Assembly (NCBI GenBank): GCA_964565775.1
Contig: CAZMGB010000006.1
Coordinates: forward strand, 9,403-73,402
Source: an uncultured Dehalococcoidia bacterium
Lineage (GTDB): Bacteria; Chloroflexota; Dehalococcoidia; DSTF01; JALHUB01
Direction of reading: 5' to 3'
Length of the DNA: 64,000 nucleotides
The position numbers were made by a program, and so were the translations under genes. The notes beneath the pieces were generated by a model. It was not told the origin of the DNA, did no database searches, and was given only the letters and a program-made list of their open reading frames with translations. Of the stretch, positions 2,514 through 27,269 are shown one piece after another (position 1 is the first letter of the stretch; every line of letters begins with the position of its first letter).

Positions 2514-2517
2514 CGTC

Positions 2518-12481: not shown

Positions 12482-13551
12482 TCACATTTCCGGAAATACC
12501 CGGCACTGAGATATCGATACCCCTCCTGGTGTTCATCGGCTTCACAATCGGCATCGTTGGTGGGTTCATTGGCGTGGGCGGCGGCTTCATGGTCACCCCA
12601 GCCCTCATCGTGCTGGGCTTTCCGGCGAACTTCGCTGTCGGCACGGACACCACTCACATCGCAGGGAAGTCCATCATAGCCACGCTGCGGCACTCCCAAC
12701 TAGGCAACGTAGACGTGAAGCTGGGCCTGATAATGGCCGTTGGAACCATCGCCGGAGCGGAAGGAGGTGTCCGCTTCATTAACTGGCTGCAAGCCCGCGG
12801 GATCGGTGAACAGGTGGTGCTGGCTGCCTCACTTTGCCTCATGGCGAGCATTGCCATCCTGACCTATCGGGAGACGATGGCGGCCAGGCGGCGGATGGAG
12901 GCTATAAAAGCTGCCGGCAAGGCGATCCCGCGCGACGAGCAGGCCAGGGGCATCGCGAAGAAGCTGCAGAGCATCCCCCTGTGGCCGATGATCTACCTCC
13001 CAACGTCGAGGGTTGTCGTTTCCTTCTGGACGGTGACGACCATCGGGGCGTTCACAGGCTTCCTGTCCGGCTTCTTTGGCGTCGGCGGCGGGTTCATCCG
13101 GGTGCCGGCGCTGATCTACCTCCTGGGGATGCCTTCCCTCATCGCGGTCGGGACAGACCTCTTCTCGATCATAATATCCTCCGGCTACAGCACTATCCGC
13201 CACGGGATGAGCCACAACGTGGTCATCTTCGCCGCCTTCATCATGATTTTTGGTGCGGCCATCGGCGCTCAGATCGGTGCGCTCGGGACTGCGTATGTGA
13301 GAGGGCCAGGGATTCGACTTATCCTTGCCGTTGCGGTGACCATCGGTGCCGCGGGCGCGGCGCTGAAGCTGGTCGACGTGCTTACCGACCAGACCTACGC
13401 CTTCCTTGGCATGGGATCGAAGATCGTTGCGTTTGGCGGCATGGGCATTCTAGTGTCGTTGATCATCGCCCTGGTGGGGATGGCCGTTGTGCTCCAACGG
13501 GCGCGTATTAGCGCGCCATCCTGGGCTGAAACGCTGATTGTGGTACACTAG
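12478..13551 (+). CDS. TauE/SafE (TSUP, DUF81) family anion permease, paralog 0
   Basis: Two 4-TM halves, each with a GxGGGF motif (GVGGGFMVTPAL, GVGGGFIRVPAL), joined by a long charged central loop. Confidence 0.8.
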   Translation: MITFPEIPGTEISIPLLVFIGFTIGIVGGFIGVGGGFMVTPALIVLGFPANFAVGTDTTHIAGKSIIATLRHSQLGNVDVKLGLIMAVGTIAGAEGGVRFINWLQARGIGEQVVLAASLCLMASIAILTYRETMAARRRMEAIKAAGKAIPRDEQARGIAKKLQSIPLWPMIYLPTSRVVVSFWTVTTIGAFTGFLSGFFGVGGGFIRVPALIYLLGMPSLIAVGTDLFSIIISSGYSTIRHGMSHNVVIFAAFIMIFGAAIGAQIGALGTAYVRGPGIRLILAVAVTIGAAGAALKLVDVLTDQTYAFLGMGSKIVAFGGMGILVSLIIALVGMAVVLQRARISAPSWAETLIVVH

Positions 13552-13771: not shown

Positions 13772-14692
13772 TTGACGACAATGAGCGGAGTAGGGATCGT
13801 GCAGGTGTTTGCCTATGTGGCTGCGGCGGTGTTCTTGCTTGGGATGGTGCGACGGGGCCTAAGGTACGCCCGCGCGCCGATGCACCTCCGCTGGGAGCTC
13901 TACCCGTTGCCTCACGAAGGGGGAAAGGACGGCTCCTACTTCGAGGAGCTGGACTGGTGGAAGAAGAAGCCGCGGCACTCCTCCCTTATCGGCGAGCTGA
14001 AGGTCATGCTGCCCGAGATACTCCTGCTGGTGGGGTTGTGGAAGCATAATCGCAAGCTGTGGTTCGTCTCGTTCCCCTTCCATGCGGGCCTCTACGCGAC
14101 GATTCTCTTCCTGGTGCTGCTACTGGGCGGTGGAATCGCGCAGGCCGCGGGAGCGCCGGTCACGGCTCACTCCAACACCGCAGCGCTCTACTATGCTACA
14201 ATAGTAGTAGGTGTCGTGGGGTTCGTTTCCGTGGGCCTTGGAGCCCTTGGCCTGCTGGTGATGCGGCTGACGGATCCAGGCCTACGTTTGTACGCTGTCC
14301 CTGCCGACTACTTCAACCTGGGGCTCATCCTGGCGATGGCACTGCTGGCGTTCGCTTCGTGGCTCTCCATCGACCAGTCGTTCACCCAGGTGCGCGAGTA
14401 CGCTCAGGGGCTGGTGTCCTTCGAGCAGCCTGCTGACACGAGCGCCCTCATAGTGGCGCAATCACTGATTCTGACCGTGTTCCTGATCTATTTGCCGTTT
14501 ACGCACATGACCCACTTTCTAGGCAAGTTCTTTACGTATCACTTCGTGCTGTGGGACGACGCTCCAAACCTCAGGGGCGGCGCCTATGAGCGTGTTATCG
14601 CTGACCTTCTCCAGAGGCCCGTTGCCTGGTCGGCTCCGCACGTGCAGTCTGGTAAGAGCTGGGCCGAAGTGGCTACGGAGGTCGAGGAATGA
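13772..14692 (+). CDS. DsrM/NarI-like heme-b membrane protein, second copy
   Basis: 306-aa polytopic protein of the NarI-gamma-like family. It overlaps the following HdrD-like gene by 4 nt. Confidence 0.7.
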   Translation: MTTMSGVGIVQVFAYVAAAVFLLGMVRRGLRYARAPMHLRWELYPLPHEGGKDGSYFEELDWWKKKPRHSSLIGELKVMLPEILLLVGLWKHNRKLWFVSFPFHAGLYATILFLVLLLGGGIAQAAGAPVTAHSNTAALYYATIVVGVVGFVSVGLGALGLLVMRLTDPGLRLYAVPADYFNLGLILAMALLAFASWLSIDQSFTQVREYAQGLVSFEQPADTSALIVAQSLILTVFLIYLPFTHMTHFLGKFFTYHFVLWDDAPNLRGGAYERVIADLLQRPVAWSAPHVQSGKSWAEVATEVEE

Positions 14693-16359
14693 CAGTCGAA
14701 CAAGAGACGGCGGAAGAAGAACGAGGCGTAGCGGTCAGTCAGCCGCCTCCATGCATCCAGACGACCATACGTGACCCGGGCCGCGTCCGCGCTCAGCTCG
14801 TCGAGCTCGACCCGGCACGGTTCATGCCGCTGCCCTATCCCTACAACACGCCGGACAGCCAGCGCCCTCTGAAGCCCCTGACCGAAAGCGCACAGCAGAA
14901 CCTGGAGTGCGATCTGGACGGCACCACCGCCATCCAGATAGCGCGGCCAAAGACGCGGGCGCAGGAGGAGGAGCTGGTAGCGAAGTTCATCAACGGGCTC
15001 AGGAAGCTCTTCTCCGCCAACGACAACTGGACCTTCCTGCAACCGCTGCTGCTGCGTCTGGACTACTGCGCCAAATGCCAGGCCTGCGCCGAGGCGTGTC
15101 CCGTCTACCTGTCCAGCGGCCGGCAGGAGATCTACCGACCGACCTACCGGTCCGAGATGTTCCGCAGGATCGTCAAGAAGTACGTGATGCCGGGCGGGTT
15201 CCTGAGCGGCTTCACGGCCGGGGGCATCGACCTGAACTGGCCGATGCTGGCGCGGCTGGCCGAGCTGTCATATCGCTGCACCATTTGCCGCCGCTGCGCG
15301 AAGTTCTGCCCCATCGGCATCGGCAACGCGCTGATCACGCGGGAGATCCGGGAGGTGTTCAGCCAGGAGCTGGGGATCGCCCCCGCCGAGCTCCACAGGC
15401 TGGGTTCGGTGCAGCACCTCAAGGTCGGCTCCAGCACGGGCATGACACCGCCTGCCTTCGCCGACACGGTGGAGTTCATGGAGGAGGATGTGGAGGAGCG
15501 GGCAGGCATGAAGTTCAAGTGGCCCATAGACAAGCAGGGCGCCGACATCCTGCTCATCCACAATGCGGGCGAGTTCCTGTCCTGGCCGGAGAACGCGGAG
15601 GCCTTCGCCATCATCATGGAGGCGGCCGGCATCAGCTATACCCTCTCCAGCGAGATGCTTGGCTACGACGCCGTCAACTACGGTCTCTGGTACGACGATG
15701 TCCAGCTCGCGCGTGTGGCGGTCAAGCACGCCGAGATCGCCAAGAAGCTGGGGGTGAAGAAGATCGTCATTGGAGAGTGCGGTCATGCCCACAAGGCCCT
15801 CGCTGTCATCGCTGATCGGGTCCTGACGGGCGACCTGAACATCCCGCGTGAGAGCTGCTTCACTTTGCTGGAGAGCATCGTCGAGAGCGGGCGGCTCAAG
15901 CTCGACCCGGACCGGAACGACTTCCCCGTCACCCTCCACGACCCCTGCAACATCGTGCGTTTGATGGGCGTCGTGGAACCGCAGCGGCGGGTGCTGCGGA
16001 AGATCGCGCCCCAATTCCGGGAGATGTACCCGAACCGGACGGAGAACTACTGCTGCGGCGGCGGCAGCGGCTTCGCTATCATGCAGGGGCTGAACTTCCC
16101 GGACTGGCGGTCGGCGATCTCCGGAAGGATGAAGTTCAAGCAGGTCCTGGAGGCGTTCCAGGACACGAAGCTGGACGATGGGTCGAGTCCCAAGTACGTG
16201 TGCTCCCCCTGCTCCAACTGCAAAGGCCAGTTCAGGGGCGTCTTCGAGTACTTCGATGCTACCAACAAGTGCGGTCTTCAGTACGGCGGGCTGGTGGAGC
16301 TGATCGTGAACGCGATGGTGGACATGCCAAAGCCGTTCATGGAGTGGGAGCAGGCATAG
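14689..16359 (+). CDS. DsrK/HdrD-like FeS protein with CCG domains, second copy
   Basis: CAKCQACAEACP and CTICRRCAKFCP FeS motifs plus CCG motifs (YCCGGGSG, CSPCSNC). Confidence 0.8.
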   Translation: MTVEQETAEEERGVAVSQPPPCIQTTIRDPGRVRAQLVELDPARFMPLPYPYNTPDSQRPLKPLTESAQQNLECDLDGTTAIQIARPKTRAQEEELVAKFINGLRKLFSANDNWTFLQPLLLRLDYCAKCQACAEACPVYLSSGRQEIYRPTYRSEMFRRIVKKYVMPGGFLSGFTAGGIDLNWPMLARLAELSYRCTICRRCAKFCPIGIGNALITREIREVFSQELGIAPAELHRLGSVQHLKVGSSTGMTPPAFADTVEFMEEDVEERAGMKFKWPIDKQGADILLIHNAGEFLSWPENAEAFAIIMEAAGISYTLSSEMLGYDAVNYGLWYDDVQLARVAVKHAEIAKKLGVKKIVIGECGHAHKALAVIADRVLTGDLNIPRESCFTLLESIVESGRLKLDPDRNDFPVTLHDPCNIVRLMGVVEPQRRVLRKIAPQFREMYPNRTENYCCGGGSGFAIMQGLNFPDWRSAISGRMKFKQVLEAFQDTKLDDGSSPKYVCSPCSNCKGQFRGVFEYFDATNKCGLQYGGLVELIVNAMVDMPKPFMEWEQA

Positions 16360-16402
16360 GGGCCTCGTCGGCAGCGCGGGAAGCGAGCACGGAGGGCACG
16401 TC

Positions 16403-16747
16403 ATGGCCGAAGCGAAGAAGAAAGTCTTCCTGCTGGGATCCGAAGGCTGCGGCGCCGGCGACCCTGACCTGGGCTACGAGATCATGATGGTGGTGCTGGG
16501 GGCCCTAGCCGAGCGCGACGACAGGCCCGCGGCCATCATCTGCTGGAATACTGCCGTGAAGCTACTCACCGCGGATTCGCCCGTCGTGCCACATCTCAAG
16601 GCGATAGAGGCGAAGGGCACCAAGATTCTGGCCGGGCAGTTGTGCGTAAACGCGTTGCAGTTGGAGGGGAAGCTTGCCGTGGGGGAGGTCGCCACGCTCG
16701 GCCAGATATTCGACCTCATCCTCCACGAAGACGTCGTCAGCCTCTGA
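16403..16747 (+). CDS. DsrE/DsrF-like small sulfur-relay-type protein (weak call)
   Basis: 114 aa with an alpha/beta pattern, conserved Cys positions (GSEGCG, AIICWN, QLCVNA) and sulfur-gene context. Not verified. Confidence 0.45.
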   Translation: MAEAKKKVFLLGSEGCGAGDPDLGYEIMMVVLGALAERDDRPAAIICWNTAVKLLTADSPVVPHLKAIEAKGTKILAGQLCVNALQLEGKLAVGEVATLGQIFDLILHEDVVSL

Positions 16748-16952
16748 GCCAACCGGGGCGCGATGTAGGTGAACAGTCCCCCCCGTCCTCACAAGCCACC
16801 CCTCGCTTTCAGGAGACACCCGTACCGTGGTCGTTCGTGGCGGCTGCGCCCGCGTGGGGCCACACTACCCAGCGGCCATCAGGCTCGCGGATGAGCCTGC
16901 TGCCTCCCGGAGAGGCATTTCCTTGACAAGTATGGGGAGCGGACCTCGCCCA

Positions 16953-17735
16953 CTAGCGGCACAATCGTGCCCACCAGTCGCGTGTCATCGACTGCTGGGC
17001 GCTCGACAGCACCCTCCCCTTGGGAGACCTGCCGGATTCGCGCTTCCCCCTTGACGAGCGGCCCCTAGCGGGAGACGCTGAGAGGTCACCCGTGATCGTC
17101 GCCGCAGCATCATCCTCGGACTTAGCATCCGTGAGGCGCTCCCACCAGTTGCGTGTCAGCAACTGCTGCGCGCTCGACAGCATTCTCCCCTTGGGAGACC
17201 TGCCGGATTCGCGCTTCCTCCTTGACGAGCGGCCCCTAGCGGGAGACGCTGAGAGGCCACCGGCGATAGTCGCCGCAGCATCGTCTTCGGACTCGGCATC
17301 CGTGAGGCGCTCCCACCAGTCACGTGTCAGCAACTGCTGCGCTATCGACAGCTCTCGTCCGCTGCCATATCTCCTCGTGCCCGGGAGACCGGATATGCGA
17401 CGCGCAGTCATCAGGCCACCGGGGAAGAGGCGCGAAAACTGCCTCTTCGTCATGCCCAGCGCGTTGCAGGTGTAGCGGAGAGAAGCCGCGTTGCCGGTGG
17501 CTTCATAGTAGCTCCGCATGTAGTCGATGACGCGCCAGTGGTCGCTCGTCAGCTCATGGGCCCAGTCCCTCAGCCCTTGACGACGGGCCAGGTACAGGGC
17601 GGCTCCCGGGGTCCACTGAGAGGGGTCTATCATGAAGCCCCGCTCATTGACCTCAACAGGCGTCTCCCATACCACTGCGACAGCCTCAGTCGCTGCTCGC
17701 ATCTTGTTACCCTGGACGGTTGTCATCCTATTCAT
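16953..17735 (-). CDS. DsrC/TusE-like protein lacking both redox Cys, with a repeated WWERLT tail (cassette 1)
   Basis: Start re-called to ATG 17735 (RBS GAGGGAGGTGGG), matching the paralog N-termini (MNRMTTV). The DsrC fold region is NERGFMIDPSQW...HWRVIDYMRSYY. The C-terminus reads ARRISGLPGTRRYG in place of ACKIAGLPKPTGCV, followed by three copies of the AQQLLTRxWWERLT motif. Confidence 0.75.
   Translation of the reverse strand: MNRMTTVQGNKMRAATEAVAVVWETPVEVNERGFMIDPSQWTPGAALYLARRQGLRDWAHELTSDHWRVIDYMRSYYEATGNAASLRYTCNALGMTKRQFSRLFPGGLMTARRISGLPGTRRYGSGRELSIAQQLLTRDWWERLTDAESEDDAAATIAGGLSASPARGRSSRRKRESGRSPKGRMLSSAQQLLTRNWWERLTDAKSEDDAAATITGDLSASPARGRSSRGKRESGRSPKGRVLSSAQQSMTRDWWARLCR
16971..17350. 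repeat. 171-bp in-frame tandem repeat (2 full units plus a partial third)
   Basis: Unit starts (ccaccagt...) lie at 16971, 17142 and 17313. The units are nearly identical and encode a 57-aa tail unit. Confidence 0.8.
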
Positions 17736-17852
17736 AATCCCACCTCCCTCGGCCGTCTCCGGCCCGCTACCGAGCTGTGCACTGTTGGAGCGAGCTCTCG
17801 ACCAGCCGCTCGTGGGCGCTACCTCTTCTGAACCAGTCACCCGGCCGGAGCA

Positions 17853-18692
17853 CTAGTGCCCGCCCCGACGGGGGAACACGAACCCAATCGTAAGCCCCAT
17901 GGCGACGGCGATGGCAAGGGACATGGCGCCGTAGAGCGGAGCGTTGTCTTTGGACATAGTCCCAAGCGAGTCCACCACTCCAACCTTCTCGACGTTGAAG
18001 GTCGTCGCGTCGGATCCTACGACCTCACCGTTTCTCACGTAGTAAGCCTGCACGCTGTAGTCGCCCAACGGGGCATCGGACGGCAGGCTCATGAACGTCT
18101 CCCAGTCACCGCCATCGTCAAGCCGGATGATGCCGCCGCTGGGTGTAGCATCGCACTCCGCGGCTTCGACCTCGTGATAGCACACCCACGGCGTATACCG
18201 ACCGTCTCTGATATACATGTCGCGCAGGGCTGACACGAACTCCATCGCCTTCTCTTCCGTGAGCGGGCTTCCCTCGGCCGTGTCCACCGCCTGTGCTTCG
18301 TCCATAATCGAGGTGGCCGCCGGATCCACGCCCAGCCGGACCTGCGCCTCTCTGCCCAGGAGCACATCCACGGGCTTCGAACTCTGGATCACGTGGATGG
18401 TCGGCACGTTCTTCACCTTGGCTTGGTCGACCGTCATCCAGACCAGGCCCATTACTCTGCCCTTCTTGCTGATCTTGACCGAGTCCGCTGGGCCGTCGAC
18501 CACCACCACGATCTCCGCACCTCCGGGCGCGCTCCCGTAGATGCTCACGTCGGCGCCTCCGAAGTTCAGCCCGACCTTCACAGTCTCGGGTGAGACGCTC
18601 AGGCTCGCTTCCGCGCCAGCTCGCGCCACTACCGACGTAGCGGCGAAGAACGCACTCAGGAGAACGGCCGCAATGACTGCCGCTGCACGCAT
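17853..18692 (-). CDS. exported protein with C-terminal TM anchor, possibly TIGR02186/Alph_Pro_TM-like (cassette 1)
   Basis: Signal peptide, a beta-rich body and a C-terminal helix ending GFVFPRRGGH. Its start overlaps the permease stop (TGATG). Paralog of 24818..25681. Confidence 0.6.
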   Translation of the reverse strand: MRAAAVIAAVLLSAFFAATSVVARAGAEASLSVSPETVKVGLNFGGADVSIYGSAPGGAEIVVVVDGPADSVKISKKGRVMGLVWMTVDQAKVKNVPTIHVIQSSKPVDVLLGREAQVRLGVDPAATSIMDEAQAVDTAEGSPLTEEKAMEFVSALRDMYIRDGRYTPWVCYHEVEAAECDATPSGGIIRLDDGGDWETFMSLPSDAPLGDYSVQAYYVRNGEVVGSDATTFNVEKVGVVDSLGTMSKDNAPLYGAMSLAIAVAMGLTIGFVFPRRGGH

Positions 18693-19912
18693 CAGTGACC
18701 TCCTCCGCTCACCGCAGCCAGCCCGAACACACTGCCCGGAGCCAGCAACAGGTCAAACAGCAACTTCACCATCACGAGAACCACGATGATACCCAGGATC
18801 GTCCGCAACTGGTGGCCTTCCAAGCGGCCGCTCATCCGCGCTCCCATCTGGGCGCCGATGGCAGCGCCGAACATCAGTAGCACTGCGAGCAGGATGTCGA
18901 CGTTGTGGTTCGTGATGGCCTGCTGGAACGCCACATTCGTCGACGTGAACACTATCTGGAACAGGTCCGTCCCCACTGCCACGTGCGTTGGAATGCCGAG
19001 GACGTAGATCATGGACGGCACCATGATGAAGCCACCGCCCACGCCCATGATGGCGGCCAGGAACCCGACGCCCAAGCCCATCCCGGCGGGGAAGAGAGCC
19101 GACACCCGTATCCCCGCCTTGTTGTACTCCGTTTGCAGTGGCAGCCGGGCCACAAAGCGACGGAATCTACTTTCCTTCTTCGGCTTCTCTTCCTCGGCGA
19201 GCTTGACTCTCAGGTCCTCAAAGCCTTCGTCCACGAGGCTCTGGATAGCTCGGGTTCGGGAGCTACGGATCCATGTCCGCACGGATTCCCGCAGCATTAG
19301 GGTACCCATGGTGCCCAACATGACGACGTAGACCACCCGGACCCAGAAGTCGAAGTTGCCCATCTCGCGCAGGATGCTCACAACCCGCACGCCGAGGGTA
19401 CCGCCAAGAATGCTCCCCAGCAGGATCGTCACTCCCAGCTTGATATCGACGTTGCCCAGCCGTGAGTGAGCAAGCGCCCCCGACGAGCCGGTGCCCGCGA
19501 TCTGCGCACTGTCCGTGCCCACCGCCACCGCAGAGGGAACGCCGATCGTCATCAGCAGGGGCGTCATGAGGAAGCCGCCACCTACCCCGGTCATCCCCGA
19601 GAGGATGCCGACCGCGAAGCCAGCGCCCACCACCATGACAACATTCATGCTCTTGTCCGCCACCGGCAGGTACACCGTTAGCGTCGTGACGTTGGGCAAG
19701 GGTATCGCCCCTGCTGCCGCCCCCGCCAGCAGGACGAGCACTACCACCCCCGCAAGGAGTAGGGCGACGCCGCTCGGGCCCAGTGCCTGCGCGGCAGGCG
19801 GCAGGACACGCATTCGCCGGGGGACGGCAGGCGCCACCACCCCCCGTATGAGTGCCTGGTCTTCCCTGGTCAGTTCGACGGTCTCACTCGGCGGTCTCGA
19901 GGTTGCACGCAT
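18692..19912 (-). CDS. TauE/SafE (TSUP) permease with about 100-aa N-terminal extension (cassette 1)
   Basis: GVGGGFLMTPLL and GVGGGFIMVPSM motifs. The N-terminus TVELTREDQALIRGVVAP is shared with cassette 3. Confidence 0.8.
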   Translation of the reverse strand: MRATSRPPSETVELTREDQALIRGVVAPAVPRRMRVLPPAAQALGPSGVALLLAGVVVLVLLAGAAAGAIPLPNVTTLTVYLPVADKSMNVVMVVGAGFAVGILSGMTGVGGGFLMTPLLMTIGVPSAVAVGTDSAQIAGTGSSGALAHSRLGNVDIKLGVTILLGSILGGTLGVRVVSILREMGNFDFWVRVVYVVMLGTMGTLMLRESVRTWIRSSRTRAIQSLVDEGFEDLRVKLAEEEKPKKESRFRRFVARLPLQTEYNKAGIRVSALFPAGMGLGVGFLAAIMGVGGGFIMVPSMIYVLGIPTHVAVGTDLFQIVFTSTNVAFQQAITNHNVDILLAVLLMFGAAIGAQMGARMSGRLEGHQLRTILGIIVVLVMVKLLFDLLLAPGSVFGLAAVSGGGH

Positions 19913-19988
19913 ACCGTTTTCCCCTTCTCTCGGCCGGCGCCGCCGGTCTCGCGGTCGCTGCCTGAGAGCCCCCGCATCCTCGTGGCAC

Positions 19989-20018
19989 TTGCGCCCTAGA
20001 GCCGTGCCACGCTAGAAT
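19989..20018 (+). promoter_or_regulatory. sigma70-like promoter, copy 1 (TTGCGC-N18-TAGAAT), pointing away from the cassette operon
   Basis: The same hexamers at the same spacing recur at 23629 and 26974. The selA upstream region also has TGATAGAAT. Confidence 0.45.
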
Positions 20019-20023
20019 GCACG

Positions 20024-20095
20024 CGGTGACCCTCGCTCCATCGGGGCTCGCCATCATGGACCGTTGGTGGCGTCATCACCGGCGGTCCATTCCTT
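20024..20095 (+). ncRNA. candidate structured small RNA, copy 1 (P1 GGUGA/UCGCC enclosing a C-rich loop, then a 12-bp hairpin)
   Basis: Hairpin GGACCGTTGGTG (20058-20069), loop GCGTCAT, CACCGGCGGTCC (20077-20088). Differences between copies are G-U compatible only on the + strand. No transcript evidence. Confidence 0.35.
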
Positions 20096-20184
20096 GCGTC
20101 TTCCGCGCTAGGTCACAGACAATTGTCGATCCCGACAGATTGAGGTGACCCGCGACTCAAGGATGGCACAAGCCTATGGGCGTC

Positions 20185-20272
20185 GCATGAAGGCTAGGCC
20201 AGGTTATGGTGAAATAGCCCACAAGATTACCTGAAGTATGCGTGAAGCCTACATGAAGATTCCATGAAGGCA
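20185..20272. promoter_or_regulatory. helically phased array of 8 consecutive 11-bp units with core NTGAAG, copy 1
   Basis: Cores at 20187 ATGAAG, 20198 GCCAGG, 20209 GTGAAA, 20220 CACAAG, 20231 CTGAAG, 20242 GTGAAG, 20253 ATGAAG and 20264 ATGAAG. Confidence 0.6.
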
Positions 20273-20373
20273 AACCGCTATCGGCTGGCTCGTAGAATCA
20301 AATGCTAGGGAAAGAGCCGCCACGCGCCCTACCGCAACACCTGGCTCGTTAGCATTAGCAAAACGCGACGACG

Positions 20374-20416
20374 GCGTGAAAATACCGTGGGGATAGTATG
20401 AAGAGTTCGTGAAGAG
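20374..20416. promoter_or_regulatory. second short phased array (4 x 11 bp) upstream of cassette 1
   Basis: Cores at 20376 GTGAAA, 20387 GTGGGG, 20398 ATGAAG and 20409 GTGAAG. Confidence 0.45.
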
Positions 20417-20639
20417 CCGCGCGGCACACCGGTCTAGCCGCTACAGCGTGGCTCGAAAGGACCATCCGCCCCTGCTTCGAAGCCCGCCACACACTCGGCG
20501 ACACTGTCCCAAAGTGCTCCAGGCTCTCTCAGCCGCTTCCAGACCTCAAGCGAGGCCCTTCTTCGAGGAATAGCCGGCGACAGACAGGGGAAGTTGAGAG
20601 AGGACGACTGGTCTTCCGTAGAGGGTTAGGCTGGAACTC

Positions 20640-21455
20640 TCAGTACCCTTCGGCCAGCCACTCACCCGAGATTGTGGCCATGGATGCCGGCAAGGGTATG
20701 GTGTCCCAGGGCTGGCCCAGGCGACGCAGCATGCCAACGTTCCATATGCGGACGGAGTCTTGCCATCCCACAACGTCTCGCACGTGACGGGCTATCCTGT
20801 TGCACAGCTCCAGAAGGACGCTCCAGTCAAGGCTCAGACCCTGCCCGAGGTAGTGGTACTTTTCGTCGCCAGCGAGGGCCCACGGCGCATCCACGTCGGG
20901 AATATCAGGGCATACGATATCCACCCTCCCCTCACCGTGCGGCTCGAGCAGAATCTTCTCAACACGACACTGCCGAGCGAGGTCGACGAACACTTGCGAG
21001 AGGCCCGCCTCCTGGCCCAGGGGCTTAGTGATGCGACCGCCAACCCACGTCACACCTGCGATCTCGCCTCCAAGCACGCCCAGGAACTTTCCCTCCCTCA
21101 CCACCTGGGTCCGCGCCTTGACCGCCTCGCTGGACTCATCCGCGAGCGGCCCGTCCAGAAAAATGCCAAAGCGGCAGTCAAACCAGTGACACCCGAATGC
21201 CGCGTGTCGCGTCAGCTCTATGCGACTGACCTCCTCGCCCGCGAGCAGAATCACCGCCCGTGATCGAGGTGTCCCCAGGAGGCCTTTCTGCCGTTCTATG
21301 ACCATCCTGCATCTCACGCCTTCGCTGCGGAGATGCTGGGCGACCGCCTCTACCAGCTCGGTGTCTTTCATGGCGGATACCTTTCCCTCAAGCCGCCTCT
21401 CCCGCAATCGTGCGGGCCGCGACAACGCAGGCGGTTCAGGATTGGAGATGTTCAC
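20640..21455 (-). CDS. hypothetical protein, translationally coupled to the cassette-2 DsrC-like gene
   Basis: 271-aa ORF whose GTG start overlaps the upstream stop (GTGA). No recognisable motif. Confidence 0.45.
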   Translation of the reverse strand: MNISNPEPPALSRPARLRERRLEGKVSAMKDTELVEAVAQHLRSEGVRCRMVIERQKGLLGTPRSRAVILLAGEEVSRIELTRHAAFGCHWFDCRFGIFLDGPLADESSEAVKARTQVVREGKFLGVLGGEIAGVTWVGGRITKPLGQEAGLSQVFVDLARQCRVEKILLEPHGEGRVDIVCPDIPDVDAPWALAGDEKYHYLGQGLSLDWSVLLELCNRIARHVRDVVGWQDSVRIWNVGMLRRLGQPWDTIPLPASMATISGEWLAEGY

Positions 21456-21937
21456 AGAGGGAGACCGCTCCTCCCTGCGCTACCATCGTGGAACTCGGCA
21501 TCCGTGAGGCGCTCCCACCAGTTACGCGTCATCAACTGCTGCGCTATAGACAGCTCTCGTCCGTTGCCATATCTCCTGGTGCCCGGGAGACCGGATATGC
21601 GGCGCGCAGTCATCAAGCCGCCGGGGAAGAGGCGGGAGAACTGCTTCTTCGTCATGCCCAGCGCGTTGCAGGTAAACCGTAGCGAAGGGGCATTGTCGGT
21701 GGCGTTGTAGTAGACCCGCATGTAGTCGATTACGCGCCAGTGGTCGCTCGTCAGCTCGCGGGGCCAGCCCCTCAGCCCTTGACGACGGGCCAGGTACAGG
21801 GCAGCTCCCGGCGTCCACTGAGAGGGGTCTGTCATGAAGCCCCGCTCATTGACCTCAACCGGCGTTTCCTGTACCGCCGCGCCAGCCTCAGTGGCTGCAT
21901 GCGTCCTATTGCTTCGGACGGTTGTCATCGTAACCAC
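21452..21937 (-). CDS. DsrC/TusE-like protein lacking redox Cys, one WWERLT tail motif (cassette 2)
   Basis: Paralog of 16953..17735 (ETPVEVNERGFMTDPSQWTPGAALYLARRQGL..., tail SIAQQLMTRNWWERLTDAE). RBS GGGAGGTGGG. Confidence 0.75.
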   Translation of the reverse strand: MVTMTTVRSNRTHAATEAGAAVQETPVEVNERGFMTDPSQWTPGAALYLARRQGLRGWPRELTSDHWRVIDYMRVYYNATDNAPSLRFTCNALGMTKKQFSRLFPGGLMTARRISGLPGTRRYGNGRELSIAQQLMTRNWWERLTDAEFHDGSAGRSGLPL

Positions 21938-22054
21938 GATCCCACCTCCCTCGGCCGTCTCCGGCCCGCTACCGAGCTGCTCACCCCTGGAGCGGTCCCG
22001 CCAGCTAGCCGTTCGCCCGTGCTACCTCCTCCGGGCCGGACACCCATCCAGACG

Positions 22055-22130
22055 TTGGTGGTCGGCCCGCCGCCGAGGGAACACGAGTTCGGTGCCCAGC
22101 CCGGCGCCCACGACAATGCGCAGGGATACC
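22055..22130 (-). pseudogene. 3' remnant (about 25 codons) of a TIGR02186-like cassette gene
   Basis: Aligns with the last codons of 24818..25681 (..VFPRRRADH) with the stop mutated to CAA. It lies directly after the stop of the cassette-2 permease. Confidence 0.5.
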
Positions 22131-22132
22131 TC

Positions 22133-23230
22133 CTACCCACCGATAGCTTCAGCAGCTCTCGTACCCTCGAGGATCAGCCTCGCCCGCTGGCGCAGCTCTT
22201 CTTCTCTCTTGCCCTTGAACATGGCTCGAATGATGAGACCGCCGGCGATGAAGAGAGTCCCGTAGAGCACCACTCGACTCACGTTTTCCAGCAAATCGTA
22301 TGTCGTGCCACCCACGCTTATGACCCCCAGGTCCGACAGGTATGCAGGAATCATCACCGCTCTGCTGACCGAGGCCAGGAGCATGATGACAGCGGTGACG
22401 AGCTTGATCATGTATTGTCTGACATAGCTTGTGCCGAGAGCGCCGACTTGCACGCCGACCAGGGAACCAGCCAGGATAATGACGGTCAACCGAAGGTCGA
22501 CGAACCCACGTATCGCCCACTCGTAAGTGCCCTCCGCTCCCATACAGAAGGCGACGATCAGCTCGGTTCCGCTGGCCACAAAGGCGGGGGCGCCGACCAC
22601 GTAGATCATCGCCGGCACGCCGATGAATCCGCCAACGGCTATCGTCGCGGCAAGCATGCCGGTGGCGAAGCCCAGAGGCACCGTGACCCACACTGAGACC
22701 TTCGCGTCCGCCTTCTTGAAATACACCATTGGCGGCAGGTTAAGGCGGGCCACCCGTTTGGCGAAGCTCGGCACCACGTCATCGACGTCCCTGCGCGCCG
22801 CCTTGCGAGCGTCCATCAGCATGTACGTCGCGACGGTAAACAGTACGACCACGAAGGTCACACTGATATAGAGGTCTGAGCCAGCGTCACCCCAGGCGTC
22901 CAGAATGATGTTCTGGATCTGCACACCCACCTTCACGCCAGCGATGGCGGACACAGCCATCACCAACCCCAGCTTCAGGTCGACGTGGCCAAGCTTTCTC
23001 CTCCGCCAGGCCCCAACAAGGGCCTTGGGGAACTTGTGCGCCATATTGCTGGCCACAGCTACGGATCCCGGTACCCCCAGGTTCATCATGCCCGGTGTCA
23101 GCACGAACGCGCCGCCGCTGCCGATGAAGCCGCTCAACATCCCGCCCAGAAAGCCGAGCGTGAACAGAGCCAGTACGGTTAGCAGCCCGATGTCGATGAA
23201 GGATATGTCCCCGTTTGCGGCAGACTCCAT
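22133..23230 (-). CDS. TauE/SafE (TSUP) permease (cassette 2, subtype like paralog 0)
   Basis: GSGGAFVLTPGM and an IAVGGFIGVPAM half-repeat, with a central loop motif (LNLPPMVYF) like IPLWPMIYL of paralog 0. Confidence 0.8.
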   Translation of the reverse strand: MESAANGDISFIDIGLLTVLALFTLGFLGGMLSGFIGSGGAFVLTPGMMNLGVPGSVAVASNMAHKFPKALVGAWRRRKLGHVDLKLGLVMAVSAIAGVKVGVQIQNIILDAWGDAGSDLYISVTFVVVLFTVATYMLMDARKAARRDVDDVVPSFAKRVARLNLPPMVYFKKADAKVSVWVTVPLGFATGMLAATIAVGGFIGVPAMIYVVGAPAFVASGTELIVAFCMGAEGTYEWAIRGFVDLRLTVIILAGSLVGVQVGALGTSYVRQYMIKLVTAVIMLLASVSRAVMIPAYLSDLGVISVGGTTYDLLENVSRVVLYGTLFIAGGLIIRAMFKGKREEELRQRARLILEGTRAAEAIGG

Positions 23231-23233
23231 CGG

Positions 23234-23554
23234 TTATCCCTTCTTGAGTTCCCGGATGCCGAGAAGCTCGAGCAAGGCGCCGGCAAAGCTCCCGTGGATC
23301 ACGCTGAAGGTCAGCGCCAGGCCAAGCACTGCCATAGCGCCGCCGATCGTGCCGGATGTGAGGCGAGGGAAGATGTCCTCGATGAAGCCGAAAAACAGCC
23401 CATACGCCGCAATGGAGGCGGCCCCAAACACGATGAGCCCAACAAGCGAGCGCGAGCGCCCCGCTCGACGTACGACAGCAACCTGCCGGACAAGCTCTTG
23501 GTCTGATCTGACCAGTTCCTCTGTCCTAGTCGTGGGTACCGCAATCCCAACCAT
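23234..23554 (-). CDS. small two-TM membrane protein preceding the cassette-2 permease
   Basis: Start re-called to ATG 23554 (RBS AAGGAGAAG). The longer track ORF would run through the conserved non-coding element. The N-terminus TEELVRSDQELVRQV resembles the N-terminal extension of the cassette 1 and 3 permeases. Confidence 0.55.
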   Translation of the reverse strand: MVGIAVPTTRTEELVRSDQELVRQVAVVRRAGRSRSLVGLIVFGAASIAAYGLFFGFIEDIFPRLTSGTIGGAMAVLGLALTFSVIHGSFAGALLELLGIRELKKG

Positions 23555-23628
23555 CGACTTCTCCTTGCCTACTGATGCCTTGCACGACCCCGGCGGCACG
23601 TACCCGGAAAGCACGCATCGCGACCAAG

Positions 23629-23658
23629 TTGCGCGCTCCGGGTCCGCAGTGCTACAAT
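23629..23658 (+). promoter_or_regulatory. sigma70-like promoter, copy 2 (TTGCGC-N18-TACAAT with TG extension)
   Basis: TTGCGC at 23629-23634 and TGCTACAAT ending at 23658. Confidence 0.45.
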
Positions 23659-23663
23659 GCACG

Positions 23664-23735
23664 TGGCGATCCCCCTGCAGTGGAGCTCGCCATCTCGGGC
23701 CGCTGGTGGCGCTAACACCGGCGGTCCCTTGCATA
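23664..23735 (+). ncRNA. candidate structured small RNA, copy 2
   Basis: P1 GGCGA (23665-23669) / TCGCC (23687-23691). Hairpin GGGCCGCTGGTG (23697-23708), loop GCGCTAA, CACCGGCGGTCC (23716-23727). Confidence 0.35.
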
Positions 23736-23794
23736 TGTATTCCGCGTTCGGTCACATACCGTTGCCGCTACCGACGAGCACGGGTGGCCGACAA

Positions 23795-23910
23795 ATGAAG
23801 CATGTCACAACCTTGCGTAGCTCGCATGAACGCTGCCGCAAGCCTTCATGAAAAAGGCCCCAAGACTCCGTGCAGATAGCATGAGGTCTACATGAGTCCT
23901 CGATGAACCC
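23795..23910. promoter_or_regulatory. 11-bp phased NTGAAG-type array, copy 2
   Basis: ATGA cores at 23826, 23848, 23881, 23892 and 23903 are all in one 11-bp register, with weaker cores between them. An out-of-register ATGAAG-N5-CACAA at 23795 is homologous to 27130 in copy 3. Confidence 0.55.
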
Positions 23911-24149
23911 GCCGGAGCCTCTGGCTACAGTCCGGACTCAAACCCCACAGCGTGAGCCGCCACGAAGCCTGCGACGAGACGCGGCCGACTGGCCGCCGTC
24001 GCAGTCACGCTAACCTTAGACCAGGGCCAGGTTAGTGTTAGCGGAGTGCCAGAACAGAGTGAGGCGGAAGTGAGGAACGTATTAGGATTAGATGAAGCTA
24101 TGGAAGCGTCGGGCAGAAGACCGGTTCAGCCGCTATGGCGAGGTTCGGA

Positions 24150-24229
24150 GCGAAGGCGGCACCGTAGAGGCACTCACCCACCCTCCTCCGGCATGTAGCC
24201 CACCCCGCGCATCGTCTGGACGACGTGGC
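24150..24229 (-). pseudogene. scar of a deleted two-component system: last ~17 codons of an OmpR-type RR plus first ~7 codons of the HK
   Basis: The minus strand reads ..VVQTMRGVGYMPEEGG-stop-GTG-PLRCRL, against the intact junction at 28640-28700 (..LIQTIRAVGYMLKEGA-stop-GTG-PLRLRL). Confidence 0.55.
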
Positions 24230-24733
24230 TCAGAGCTTCGGAGGAACGCGCTGCAGGGGTGCGTCACGCGGGATTCCATCCTCTTCGGACCCAGCACCCG
24301 TGAGGCGCTCCCACCAGTCGCGTGTCATCAACTGCTGCGCTATCGACACTTCCCGTCGGTTGGCGGACCTTCTCGGCCCCGGAAGACCGGATATGCGGCG
24401 CACGGTCATCAGGCCACCGGGGAAGAGGCGGGTGAAGTGCCTCTTCGTCATGCCCAGCGCACGGCAGGTGTACCGGAGCGAAGGGGCATTGCCGGTGGCC
24501 TCATAGTAGACCCGCATGTAGTCGATAACACGCCAGTGGTCGCTCGTCAGCTCATGGGGCCAGTCCTTGAGCCCCTGATGACGGGCCAGGTACAGGGCAG
24601 CTCCCGGCGTCCACTGAGAGGGGTCTGTCATGAAGCCCCGCTCATTGACCTCAACCGGCGTTTCCTGTACCGCCGCGACAGCCTCAGTTGCAGCCTGCGT
24701 CTTACTGTCTCCGACGGTTGTCATCCTGTTCAT
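24230..24733 (-). CDS. DsrC/TusE-like protein lacking redox Cys, one WWERLT tail motif (cassette 3)
   Basis: Paralog of the other two (MNRMTTV..., tail SIAQQLMTRDWWERLTGAG). Confidence 0.75.
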   Translation of the reverse strand: MNRMTTVGDSKTQAATEAVAAVQETPVEVNERGFMTDPSQWTPGAALYLARHQGLKDWPHELTSDHWRVIDYMRVYYEATGNAPSLRYTCRALGMTKRHFTRLFPGGLMTVRRISGLPGPRRSANRREVSIAQQLMTRDWWERLTGAGSEEDGIPRDAPLQRVPPKL

Positions 24734-24817
24734 AATCCCACCTCCCTCGGCCGTCTCCGGCCCGCAGCTAGCCGCTCGCCTGTGCTACCTCTTCCGAGCC
24801 ACACGCCCATCCAGGCG

Positions 24818-25681
24818 TCAGTGGTCGGCCCGCCGCCGAGGGAACACGAATCCGGTGGCCAGCCCGACGGCGATGATGATGCCCAGGCACAACGCGCCGT
24901 AGAGCGGAGCTTTGTCCTTCGCCATCGAGCCGAGCGAGTCCACCAAGCCGGCCTTCCTGACACTGAAGGTCGCCGAGTCGGACCCGACCACCTGGCCATC
25001 CTTGATGCAATACGAGTCCACGGTGTAGTCACCGAGCGGGGCATCCCAAGACAGGCTAACCCACGTCTCCCATCGCCCATTCTTCAGATGGATGACGTTA
25101 TCGCCCGGCGCCGTGCCGGCCGCCGTGTCCCCCACACTGGCCGCGGCCACCGGTAGCGCGCCCTGACAGCTCGGGCACGCGACGTAGCGGCCGTCCCTGA
25201 TGTACATGTCACGGAGCCCCGCTATGAACTCCGCCGCCTTATCCTCCGAGACCGCCGTCCCCTCACCCGGGTCGACCGCCCGGGCCTGGCTCACGATAGA
25301 CGCGGACATGGGGTCCACGCCCAGTCGGAGCTGCTCTTCCTGGCTCAAGATCTTGTCTATCTCGTCCGAGCTGTAGACCACGTGGAAGGCCGGCATGTTC
25401 TCAACCTGAGCGTGGCCGACGGTCATCCAGAAGAGTCCCAGCACCTTGCCCTTCTTGCTTACCTTCACGGAGTCCGTCGGCCCGTCGACCTTGAGAACCA
25501 CCTGCGTACCCTCGGGCGCCGTCCCATAGACGTGTACGTCGTACCCCGTGAAGTCCAACCCAACGTCCACGACGCTCGGCGAGACGCTCATGGTCGGCCC
25601 CTCGTCAGCCCACGCCGACTGCGCCGTCGCGGTCAAGAAGGTGGCGAGGAGAAGAGAAACGAAGCACAGGAGCGCACGCAT
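24818..25681 (-). CDS. exported protein with C-terminal TM anchor, possibly TIGR02186/Alph_Pro_TM-like (cassette 3)
   Basis: 287-aa paralog of 17853..18692 (VSPSVVDVGLDFTGYDVHVYGTAP..., C-terminal GFVFPRRRADH). Confidence 0.6.
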   Translation of the reverse strand: MRALLCFVSLLLATFLTATAQSAWADEGPTMSVSPSVVDVGLDFTGYDVHVYGTAPEGTQVVLKVDGPTDSVKVSKKGKVLGLFWMTVGHAQVENMPAFHVVYSSDEIDKILSQEEQLRLGVDPMSASIVSQARAVDPGEGTAVSEDKAAEFIAGLRDMYIRDGRYVACPSCQGALPVAAASVGDTAAGTAPGDNVIHLKNGRWETWVSLSWDAPLGDYTVDSYCIKDGQVVGSDSATFSVRKAGLVDSLGSMAKDKAPLYGALCLGIIIAVGLATGFVFPRRRADH

Positions 25682-26898
25682 CAGTGACCTCCTCCACCTA
25701 CCGAAACCACCCCGAACACACTGCCCGGAGCCATCAGCAGGTCAAACAGCAACTTGATCATCACCAGGAGCACGATGACACTCAGAATCGTCCGCAACTG
25801 GTGGCCTTCCAGGCGGCCGCTCATCCGCGCCCCCACCTGGGCGCCGATGGCGGCGCCAACCAGCAACAGCACGCCGAGCAAGATATCGACGTTGTGGTTG
25901 GTGATCGCCTGCTGGAACGCCACGTTCGAGGACGTGAAGACCATCTGGAAGAGGCTTGTCCCTACCGCAACGTGTGTCGGGACGCCGAGGATGTAGATCA
26001 TCGCCGGCACCATGATGAAGCCACCGCCCACCCCCATCAGGGCAGTCAGCAAGCCGATACTCAGACCCAGACCGAAGGGAAAGAGCAAAGAGGCACGTAT
26101 CTTCGAGGTGTGGAAGTCCATCTGGAGTGGCCAGCGAGCCGTAACGCCGCCCGACCGTCCTGCGTCCGGCTGCTCCCGCGCTACGAGCTTTGCCCCCCCT
26201 TCGTCGGAGCCCTCACCCACCGCGCTCCTGATGATTTGGGGCCGCGTGCTGCGCACCCAGGTCCGCACGGCCTCCCGCAACATGAAGCTGCCGACACTGC
26301 CCAGCATGATGATGTAGACTATTCGGACGCAGAAGTCGAAGTTGCCCATCTCGCGCAGCAAGTAGACGACACGCACGCCGACGGTGCCGCCGATAAGGGC
26401 CCCAACCAGGATCACCAACCCCAGTTTGACATCGACGTTGCCCAGCCTCGAATGGCCGAGTGCCCCCGATGAGGCGGTGCCCGCGATCTGCGCACTGTCC
26501 GTGCCCACCGCCACCGCAGAGGGAATGCCGATCGTCATCAGCAGGGGCGTCATGAGAAAGCCGCCACCCACCCCCGTCATCCCGGAGAGAATGCCGACCG
26601 CGAAGCCGATACCCACCAGTGGGACGACATTCATGCTCTTGTCCGCCACCGGCAGGTAGATCGTTAGCGTGAAGATGTTGGGCAAGGGTATCGCCCCCGC
26701 TGCCGTCCCCGCCAGCAGGACGAGCACCACCACCCCCGCAAGAAGAAGCGCGACGCCGCTCAGGCCCAGCGCGTGCGCGACAGGCAGCAGGACACGCAGC
26801 CCACGGGGTGCGGTGGGGGCCACCACCCCTCGAATGAGTGCCTGGTCCTCCCTGGTCAGTTCGACGGTGTCGGTCGGCGGTGGTAAGGTCGAACTCAT
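25681..26898 (-). CDS. TauE/SafE (TSUP) permease with N-terminal extension (cassette 3)
   Basis: Start re-called to ATG 26898 (RBS GAGGGGAAG) to match the cassette-1 paralog (MSSTLPPPTDTVELTREDQALIRG). The track start at 27075 would read through the conserved non-coding element. Confidence 0.8.
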   Translation of the reverse strand: MSSTLPPPTDTVELTREDQALIRGVVAPTAPRGLRVLLPVAHALGLSGVALLLAGVVVLVLLAGTAAGAIPLPNIFTLTIYLPVADKSMNVVPLVGIGFAVGILSGMTGVGGGFLMTPLLMTIGIPSAVAVGTDSAQIAGTASSGALGHSRLGNVDVKLGLVILVGALIGGTVGVRVVYLLREMGNFDFCVRIVYIIMLGSVGSFMLREAVRTWVRSTRPQIIRSAVGEGSDEGGAKLVAREQPDAGRSGGVTARWPLQMDFHTSKIRASLLFPFGLGLSIGLLTALMGVGGGFIMVPAMIYILGVPTHVAVGTSLFQMVFTSSNVAFQQAITNHNVDILLGVLLLVGAAIGAQVGARMSGRLEGHQLRTILSVIVLLVMIKLLFDLLMAPGSVFGVVSVGGGGH

Positions 26899-26973
26899 CA
26901 GCTTCCCCTCACTTGCTGCTTGGTACCACCAGCCCGGCGGCGGTTGCCTCGGAAGTGGTGCATCGCCACAACG

Positions 26974-27003
26974 TTGCGCGCTCCAGGATCGCCATGCTAG
27001 AAT
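26974..27003 (+). promoter_or_regulatory. sigma70-like promoter, copy 3 (TTGCGC-N18-TAGAAT with TG extension)
   Basis: TTGCGC at 26974-26979 and TGCTAGAAT ending at 27003. Confidence 0.45.
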
Positions 27004-27008
27004 GCGCG

Positions 27009-27080
27009 CGGCGACCCTCCCTCCGCTGGAGCTCGCCATCCTGGGCCGCCGGTGGTACCAGCACCGGCGGTCCACTTATG
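27009..27080 (+). ncRNA. candidate structured small RNA, copy 3
   Basis: P1 GGCGA/TCGCC enclosing CCCTCCCTCCGCTGGAGC. Hairpin GGGCCGCCGGTG (27043-27054), loop GTACCAG, CACCGGCGGTCC (27062-27073). Confidence 0.35.
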
Positions 27081-27125
27081 TCAATGTTCACATACAGTCT
27101 GCACAGGAGCTCACCGCGATGCTCC

Positions 27126-27245
27126 GTGAATGAAGAATGCCACAAGCAGGAGCGACCTGCATGAACAGACGCTGAAGGCAGATTCAGAATGGAGTCAGGA
27201 TTGCGTTACAGGATGATAAGGGAGGTATTAAGGCTTCACGAAGCG
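27126..27245. promoter_or_regulatory. 11-bp phased NTGAAG-type array, copy 3, abutting the HK stop
   Basis: Cores at 27161 ATGAAC, 27172 CTGAAG, 27183 TTCAGA, 27194 GTCAGG, 27205 GTTACA, 27216 ATAAGG, 27227 ATTAAG and 27238 ACGAAG, plus ATGAAG 27130 and CACAAG 27141. Confidence 0.5.
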
Positions 27246-27269
27246 GAGGGGGGCTGCTGGGTGGCGGGG

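Follow-up and report, generated by a model that had tools for sequence, protein, structure and literature searches.

Which strand, if either, carries the function of a non-coding block that recurs in front of three paralogous gene cassettes? This question is raised by a 64-kb stretch of DNA from an uncultured Dehalococcoidia bacterium (64,000 nucleotides of contig CAZMGB010000006.1; in the following, 'the window' refers to this whole stretch). The three cassettes lie on the minus strand from 16953 to 26898, and each contains a gene for a TauE/SafE permease. A sequence-only reading of the window had interpreted the block as a divergently transcribed small RNA (sRNA) of about 70 nt or, alternatively, as a DNA-level operator. 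We regard it as likely that a plus-strand RNA exists at these blocks. On balance and with modest confidence, we favor the explanation that each block is a predicted small plus-strand RNA gene, antisense to the long leader of its own cassette.

A conserved block at a fixed position

Alignment within the window recovered three copies of a block of about 105 nt (19989-20092, 23629-23731 and 26974-27077), in each case on the strand opposite its minus-strand cassette. A degenerate 43-nt core pattern, allowing up to 3 mismatches, likewise hit exactly three sites in the window, where 100 shuffles gave 0. The three copies described from the sequence alone were thus recovered, as was their better conservation relative to the flanks: the block is 72-80% identical in pairwise comparison (its RNA part 77-80%), as opposed to 36-61% for the 76 nt separating the element from the start codon and 39-61% for the sequence past the hairpin. 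In a separate comparison, the elements of cassettes 1 and 2 were 71% identical over the RNA part, and their TauE proteins just 32%. The position, previously given as 60-190 bp upstream of the start codons, had to be revised, as the distance from the start codons (19912, 23554 and 26898) is 75-77 nt for the -35 edge of the block and about 205 nt for its far end.

Homologous loci were fetched via TauE homology from GTDB genomes, Joint Genome Institute metagenomes and contigs encoding specific homologous proteins. A covariance model was made from the three window copies and then rebuilt from 16 copies, and about 600 kb of loci were searched. Altogether 21 distinct full-length copies were found in 14 sources, with scores of 73-108 bits, in related Dehalococcoidia metagenome-assembled genomes (MAGs) and metagenome contigs; the closest relatives of the window genome in GTDB are MAGs labelled uncultured Dehalococcoidia. 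Unless stated otherwise, the counts below refer to these 21 copies. Each of them is encoded opposite to TauE and directly precedes a TauE-type cassette, and the element was found at no other position in the loci searched. The -35 hexamer and the start codon are mostly separated by about 75 nt (72-79 nt), and by 48 and 57 nt in two copies of locus L001. In several genomes (L001, L043, L054 and L058) there are two or three copies, one for each cassette. The element is kept across contigs whose TauE proteins drop to about 63-66% identity.

A comparison to known families was carried out with Rfam 15 (cmscan, positions 15000-32000, both strands, E <= 10) and returned three chance-level matches, none of them overlapping the elements. 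Of the two scans that had been suggested for the block, the covariance-model search extended it to 21 copies and the Rfam search returned no family match.

The comparison also indicates that the element is not protein-coding, in agreement with the earlier reading. No reading frame is conserved across the homologues, since the copies differ by indels of 1-2 nt (copy 2 carries a 1-nt indel) and have no conserved start codon. The single ATG inside the predicted RNA of copy 1 has no counterpart in copies 2 and 3.

Covarying helices and their strand

The predicted RNA contains two helices, P1 with 9 pairs and P2 with 12 pairs. In the window copies, both had been correctly described, P1 as GG(Y)GA...TCGCC and P2 as a 12-bp hairpin with the invariant right arm CACCGGCGGTCC. 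Over both helices, 95.7% of the cells are paired, compared to 34-58% when the partners were slid by 1-3 columns. Compensatory changes, for which the sequence-only reading had proposed a search among homologues, affect 7 pairs (15 cells changed on both sides), and the observed covariation score was reached by none of 500 shuffles. Pairing amounts to 91.4% in P1, where 4 pairs show changes in both partners, and to 98.8% in P2, with 3 compensatory pairs, e.g. GUCAGUG/CACUGAC in L001 and GCCGGUG/CACCGGC in the window.

The variation within the helices is furthermore one-sided. The observation, first made on the window copies, that stem substitutions are G-U compatible on the plus strand extends to the homologues, where the plus-strand reading gives 59 G-U cells against 8 A-C cells, and P2 alone 34 against 3. 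A G-U pair occurs somewhere in 8 of the 12 pair columns of P2, an A-C combination in the terminal one only. The two most variable P2 positions take only A-U, G-U, G-C and U-A, U-G, C-G, without a single non-pair; read as minus strand or as duplex DNA, their commonest states would be mismatches. Folding energies point in the same direction. RNAalifold gave a consensus of -33.5 kcal/mol for the plus strand and -9.8 kcal/mol for the minus strand, and in 20 of the 21 copies the single-sequence minimum free energy was lower on the plus strand. For the three window copies, fold z-scores were -3.3, -1.9 and -3.2 (plus) versus -1.1, -1.6 and -1.4 (minus). The genome has a GC content of about 62%, and the first 14 nt past P2 contain 45% T and 17% A; this is compatible with an intrinsic terminator on the plus strand whose U-tract is weak.

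A promoter-like footprint

The pattern TTGCGC-N18-TA(G/C)AAT, reported before for the three window copies and extended by TG in two of them (copies 2 and 3), was confirmed there and is kept as a footprint among the homologues. The information content per column is 1.44 bits in the -35 hexamer and 1.45 bits in the -10 hexamer, and 0.45 bits in the spacer, which is variable in sequence and measures 18 nt in 19 copies. The -10 hexamer retains T1, A2, A5 and T6, with variable middle positions; TACAAT, TAAAAT, TACGAT, TATGAT and CAGAAT are found besides TAGAAT. Two conserved hexamers around a spacer that varies in sequence and is nearly constant in length are what a sigma70-type promoter would predict, and such a pattern would be meaningless on the other strand. 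A simple sigma70 rule locates the plus-strand site in 15 of the 21 loci, the site scoring 8 of 12 matches.

Directly upstream of the -35 hexamer, a short palindromic motif (GCATCGCGAT-like) was observed at 19970-19988, 23610-23628 and 26955-26973. It is moderately conserved, with a perfect GCATCGCGATGC in L020, and might either control the RNA promoter as an operator or form a hairpin in the leader.

The comparative analysis thus establishes a conserved element with a fixed position and orientation, a structure, a strand bias and a promoter-like footprint. Because of this footprint, the structure, the strand bias, the energies, the tail and the non-coding character, a plus-strand RNA of about 75-80 nt is predicted, reaching from P1 to past P2. 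As to the divergent sRNA of about 70 nt proposed earlier, a plus-strand RNA of roughly 70-80 nt is consequently supported; the function assigned to its loop did not hold, as described below.

Sequence motifs around the element

Past the RNA 3' end, arrays of (T/A)NAAG half-sites are found in every locus, in the window at 20156-20275, 23790-23915 and 27131-27260. The half-site spacings from 16 loci are phased, with 27 pairs at 11 bp, 12 at 22 bp, 13 at 33 bp and 12 at 44 bp, and the histogram also peaks at 55 bp. Read on the cassette strand, they have the sequences CTTGTG-N5-CTTAAT and CTTCAT-N5-CTTAAC, and the arrays the form CTTCA/CTTAA-N6. Since nearly all loci encode a response regulator and a histidine kinase directly in front of a cassette, the repeats are probably binding sites of this adjacent OmpR/PhoB-family regulator. 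PmrA/BasR-type and PhoB-type boxes have the form YTTAAK-N5-YTTAAK with an 11-bp periodicity. The repeats described here are similar, being 11-bp phased direct repeats of the CTTAA type with an OmpR/PhoB-family regulator encoded next door. Unlike a single PmrA box, they comprise up to five tandem units; they are putative sites of a regulator that stays below every NCBIfam equivalog cut-off.

One of these elements, 'box A', is conserved in all homologous loci as TTAAGAATGCCACAAG, followed by TCATGA at a fixed distance. Judged by eye, box A (TGnCATTCT) might form a weak extended -10 promoter with the TCATGA upstream of it, or might itself be a PmrA-like site in place of a -35 element. A sigma54 interpretation of the TGGCAT within box A was discarded, since no GC element lies at the right spacing and the regulator does not belong to the NtrC-type activators. 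On the cassette strand, no consistently placed sigma70-like promoter was found in a region of about 400 nt in the 21 loci, nor was one found in the 76-nt stretch from the element to the start codon.

A second kind of DNA motif lies 3-30 nt beyond the P2 hairpin. The G(G/T)TCACA(G/T)A box of the sequence-only reading is present in the three window copies (GGTCACAGA, GGTCACATA and GTTCACATA at 20111, 23750 and 27086), and additionally turned out to be the right half-site of a TGTG-N8-CACA palindrome. An exact version of this palindrome is present within 45 nt of P2 in 12 of the 21 copies; in 248 kb of loci there are 13 exact occurrences, 12 of which are at the site beyond P2. The window copies have only degenerate versions, e.g. 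at 27080-27095. The stem letters are conserved, and the loop and the position are variable. This looks like a putative protein-binding DNA site and not like an RNA helix. We take its geometry to be CRP/FNR-like; no Crp/Fnr-family gene was seen in the window.

Finally, a motif similar to GGCNGGUGG was observed about 35 nt before the start codons on the minus strand (approximately 19945-19953, 23585-23595 and 26930-26940). It resembles the 5' arm of P2, is complementary to the P2 3' arm and is conserved in about 13 of the 21 loci. This leader motif could offer an alternative pairing.

Proposed antisense arrangement

In the arrangement that we favor, transcription, the RNA ends, the cassette transcription start and the antisense mechanism are all inferred. 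A sigma70-type promoter (TTGCGC, 18 nt, TAGAAT) would direct a start at the first G of P1. The RNA would then consist of the short C/U-rich stem-loop P1, a 6-nt linker CCAUYY and the very stable 12-bp hairpin P2, and termination probably takes place in the T-rich tail after P2, giving a transcript of about 75-80 nt. For the window, this predicts transcripts at about 20025-20100, 23665-23738 and 27010-27085.

In the case of the cassettes, activation by the neighbouring OmpR-family two-component system via the 11-bp phased repeats appears most likely. As the regulator sites are distal and no sigma70-like promoter precedes the ATG, the cassette mRNA most likely begins upstream of the RNA gene. 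Most simply, it would start near box A, and its leader of about 200-250 nt would carry the RNA gene in antisense in most lineages. The RNA would then pair with the leader of its own cassette, as a locus-specific cis-antisense RNA, and might act through leader pairing, through effects on processing or stability, or through interference between convergent promoters. With the RNA promoter facing the cassette promoter, such an RNA may dampen cassette expression or set a threshold on it. As the window RNAs are only 71-77% identical to one another, each would match its own leader perfectly and the others partly.

Going further, one may tentatively imagine that each paralogous cassette has a private antisense RNA, in a family restricted to dsrAB-bearing uncultured Dehalococcoidia, and that this RNA, together with the TGTG-N8-CACA site and the arm-mimicking leader motif, forms a multi-input switch choosing the cassette to be expressed. 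This is possible, and we hold it with considerably less conviction than the antisense arrangement itself.

Several points weigh against the antisense RNA. Firstly, TTGCGC matches TTGACA at just 3 of 6 positions, and for this reason a stricter promoter scan of the window does not call the site. Secondly, the window tails contain fewer than 5 T in 8 nt, so that a terminator scan with a strict U-tract rule calls none; the U-tract is non-canonical. Thirdly, the P2 arms have the highest information content in the element (1.52 bits per column), beyond what a mere terminator would need, hinting at an extra constraint such as a protein or another pairing partner; taken together with the GGCNGGUGG mimic, this hints at an additional pairing or protein partner. 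Fourthly, the 21 copies are related by descent, and the cell counts given above therefore overstate the number of independent events. Fifthly, the overlap with the cassette transcript is itself an inference. Lastly, the element was not found upstream of TauE in L044, L046, L050 and L052, even with filters off. As these four related cassettes keep box A and the two-component system, the RNA is not essential for cassette control.

In that sub-lineage, the regions without the element are L044 9694-10000, L046 9696-10000, L052 5716-6000 and L050 7389-7572, and the cassettes without the RNA still have a gap of about 200 nt from box A to the ATG. One MAG, GCA_964406605.1, holds both kinds, namely L001 with three copies and L044 with none. 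Also upstream of the fourth TauE gene of the window, the covariance-model search found no element.

Alternative explanations

The evidence for a plus-strand RNA applies equally to an sRNA acting in trans, whose C/U-rich P1 region would pair with the purine-rich ribosome binding sites (RBSs) of the cassettes in the manner of RsaE/RoxS or 6C RNA. The sequence-only reading had proposed a related function, with a CCUCC-rich loop pairing to GGAGG-type RBSs. In a subgroup of loci (L049, L003, L020 and L057), the 3' side of P1 and the linker (CUCCCCAU) are indeed complementary over 8-9 bp to AUGGGGAG in the Shine-Dalgarno region of TauE. RNAduplex calculations against the cognate TauE start regions gave a mean z of -1.0 relative to dinucleotide shuffles, i.e. 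duplexes about one standard deviation better than shuffled ones. These scores are weak, and the long predicted duplexes would need an opening of the very stable P2. The loop sequence of P1 is not conserved and offers no conserved seed: the CCUCC type is particular to the window copies, and the homologues mostly have CUC(G/A)CUC(A/G)CU. Moreover, no site matching the window-type RNAs (CUCGCCAU) is present in the start regions of their own cassettes, complementarity to G-rich Shine-Dalgarno sequences is trivial for any C-rich stem, and no C-rich sRNA family of Rfam matches. The loop-to-RBS pairing proposed earlier is consequently not supported, and a trans-acting sRNA in general appears unlikely to us.

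A second possibility is that the element works as part of the cassette mRNA, i.e. as a minus-strand leader structure such as a riboswitch or attenuator, the plus-strand hexamers being coincidental. The element probably does lie within the cassette leader, given the distal repeats and the lack of a promoter before the ATG; its distance to the start codon is about 75 nt in most copies, and the GGCNGGUGG motif, similar as it is to one arm of P2, might pair with the opposite arm. On the minus strand, however, the G-U pairs turn into A-C mismatches and the folds are less stable, both as a consensus and in nearly every single copy. The conservation of the two hexamers and their spacing would be left unexplained, and the T-rich tail would be on the wrong side. 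In addition, no riboswitch or leader family of Rfam matched on either strand, and for the 76-nt proximal leader RNAalifold found no consensus structure on either strand. We therefore consider a minus-strand leader element distinctly improbable.

Thirdly, the 12-bp inverted repeat might act as DNA, as an operator for a dimeric regulator, with the hexamers forming a divergent or decoy promoter and without any functional RNA. This would agree with P2 arms that are more conserved than usual terminator stems and with the TGTG-N8-CACA palindrome and phased repeats clustering alongside. Yet the commonest states at two stem positions would be G-T mismatches in DNA (11 of 21 and 14 of 21 copies), while all variants at these positions pair in a plus-strand RNA. 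True compensatory changes occur, as in the L001 hairpin, and P1 covaries too. An operator made of the hairpin is thus very improbable. What stands of the operator first proposed as an alternative is that DNA-level sites, the phased repeats and TGTG-N8-CACA, flank the element.

That the block is a functionless repeat kept similar by gene conversion or duplication, or a small mobile repeat, is scarcely credible: copy 2 shares 71-74% identity with copies 1 and 3 of the window and 60% with its counterpart of the same cassette type in L043, suggesting some within-genome homogenisation, but the element keeps one position and one orientation relative to TauE, persists where the TauE proteins have diverged and the flanks are much less conserved, and shows structured covariation. 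An integron attC-like or other mobile repeat was rejected for its fixed position, the lack of copies elsewhere in the loci searched and the absence of an integrase domain among the window proteins scanned with Pfam.

Relation to known regulatory RNAs

Cis-encoded antisense sRNAs directed against operon 5' leaders include IS10 RNA-OUT/RNA-IN, SymR/symE, As1_flv4 of Synechocystis and AmgR, which lies opposite the PhoP-controlled mgtCBR. By analogy, the layout of the favored antisense RNA comes closest to RNA-OUT, SymR, As1_flv4 and AmgR. Like these, it would be short and structured, would have a constitutive-looking promoter of its own and would lie opposite the 5' region of its proposed target gene, and it is locus-specific and duplicated together with its target. 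As in the case of AmgR and mgtCBR, the target operon would be under a two-component system. In contrast to these RNAs, the overlap with the target transcript is here a prediction, the RBS is not covered as the promoter lies about 75 nt upstream of the start codon, and there is no sequence or structural homology.

Some resemblance also exists to micF-ompC of enterobacteria, where an sRNA gene points away from a gene under an OmpR-family regulator with phased direct repeats. There, the OmpR sites lie between two divergent promoters, whereas here the repeats lie beyond the RNA 3' end, implying a face-to-face or overlapping geometry instead of a back-to-back one. Furthermore, micF acts in trans on ompF, and our elements have no Rfam match. 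The resemblance is only superficial. With RsaE/RoxS and the actinobacterial 6C RNA, the element shares its small size, a C/U-rich stem-loop followed by a terminator-like hairpin, and a high-GC genome. Unlike these, it gave no covariance-model match at E <= 10, its C-rich loop is not conserved among homologues, and it is multi-copy and locus-linked instead of a single-copy global regulator.

Taken as a whole, the element appears to be a new sRNA family, its kind being that of bacterial sRNA genes that combine a promoter with a terminator-like hairpin. Among the loci fetched via TauE homology, it has so far been seen in one clade of uncultured Dehalococcoidia and with one gene module. To our knowledge, which rests on an incomplete search of the literature, few descriptions of regulatory RNAs exist for Chloroflexota, and we know of none in the uncultured sediment Dehalococcoidia implicated in sulfur cycling. 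Literature searches on the gene module and on TIGR02186 returned nothing on the element. It is a candidate with comparative support, in that its promoter footprint, its pair of covarying helices and its strand signature are tied to one gene module, namely TauE/SafE, TIGR02186 and DsrC-like genes with an OmpR-type two-component system, beside dsrAB, dsrK-like and dsrMK-like genes. No new kind of mechanism is implied; the value lies in a new family and a clean test case. It supplies a covariance model for annotating these MAGs, a hypothesis testable in existing metatranscriptomes and a handle on the individual control of paralogous sulfur-transport cassettes.

Coordinates and gene neighbourhood

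Table 1. Features of the three elements, their flanking motifs and the associated genes. Positions are those of the window, except where a locus (L number) is named.
Feature	Position	Strand	Remarks
Copy 1, -35-like hexamer TTGCGC	19989-19994	+	kept in homologues
Copy 1, -10-like hexamer TAGAAT	20013-20018	+	18 nt after the -35 hexamer
Copy 1, helix P1	20025-20052	+	GGTGA...TCGCC, inner CCUC/GGGG stem, C/U-rich loop; predicted RNA 5' end
Copy 1, helix P2	20058-20088	+	12-bp GC-rich hairpin, terminator-like
Copy 1, T-rich tail after P2 (ATTCCTTGCGTCTT)	20089-20102	+	
Copy 1, box A (CTCAAGgatggCACAAG)	20156-20172		two half-sites 11 bp apart; copy-3 equivalent at 27131-27146
Copy 1, five tandem (A/T)(C/G)AAG units	20221-20269		11-bp spacing; putative response-regulator sites
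Copy 2, promoter-like region	23629-23658	+	TTGCGC 23629-23634; TG-extended TACAAT 23653-23658
Copy 2, predicted RNA body	23665-23727	+	P1 23665-23691, P2 23697-23727; 113 and 87.8 bits in two covariance-model searches
Copy 3, promoter-like region	26974-27003	+	TTGCGC 26974-26979; TG-extended TAGAAT 26998-27003
Copy 3, predicted RNA body	27010-27073	+	P1 27010-27037, P2 27043-27073
Exact TGTG-N8-CACA sites	L021 1853; L047 9808; L002 5085; L025 1661; L043 6367; L054 3135/5784/5806; L057 3413; L058 1818/6232; L001 1512		
Cassette 1	16953-19912	-	TauE/SafE with N-terminal extension 18692-19912, TIGR02186/Alph_Pro_TM 17853-18692, DsrC-like 16953-17840 (Pfam, NCBIfam)
Cassette 2	20640-23554	-	106-aa membrane open reading frame (ORF) with TAA stop 23234-23554, TauE 22133-23230, DsrC-like 21452-21937, 271-aa ORF 20640-21455
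Cassette 3	24230-26898	-	TauE 25681-26898, Alph_Pro_TM 24818-25681, DsrC-like 24230-24733
Two-component system directly upstream of cassette 3	27270-29399	-	histidine kinase 27270-28646, OmpR/PhoB-family response regulator 28647-29399 (Pfam, NCBIfam, PDB sequence search)

The positions of the individual features are given in Table 1. The TIGR02186/Alph_Pro_TM product is a membrane protein, and the DsrC-like product is DsrC/TusE-like. The TauE/SafE permeases of cassettes 1 and 3 carry an N-terminal extension of about 95 aa, and the TauE of cassette 2 has 365 aa. The neighbourhood is one of sulfur metabolism, with a dsrAB-like NIR_SIR pair at 1287-3588, HdrD/DsrK-like Fe-S/CCG proteins at 4979-6541 and 14689-16359, and a DsrM-like membrane subunit at 13772-14692; the fourth TauE gene is located at 12478-13551. 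Such a dsrAB context is that of uncultured sediment Dehalococcoidia implicated in sulfur cycling (PMC4959651).

The N-terminal membrane segment that is fused to TauE in cassettes 1 and 3 is encoded in cassette 2 by the separate 106-aa ORF, which is in the same frame and ends one codon before the TauE ATG. The same split architecture is seen in L043 (6590-8011) and L054 (3341-4762). A selenocysteine read-through between this ORF and TauE was ruled out by the TAA and TAG stops, and the two are therefore ordinary genes. A gene for selenocysteine synthase (SelA) is present at 34574-35953, and selenoproteins are therefore probably made by the organism; a connection to the cassettes was not found.

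In many cassettes, the DsrC-like gene is followed by a gene for a 324-325-aa protein without a Pfam or NCBIfam match. In the window, this gene is located upstream of the response regulator instead (29689-30663, minus strand). Further examples are found at L043 13316-14290, L047 12636-13613, L048 12650-13624, L049 8814-9788 and L057 6281-7255.

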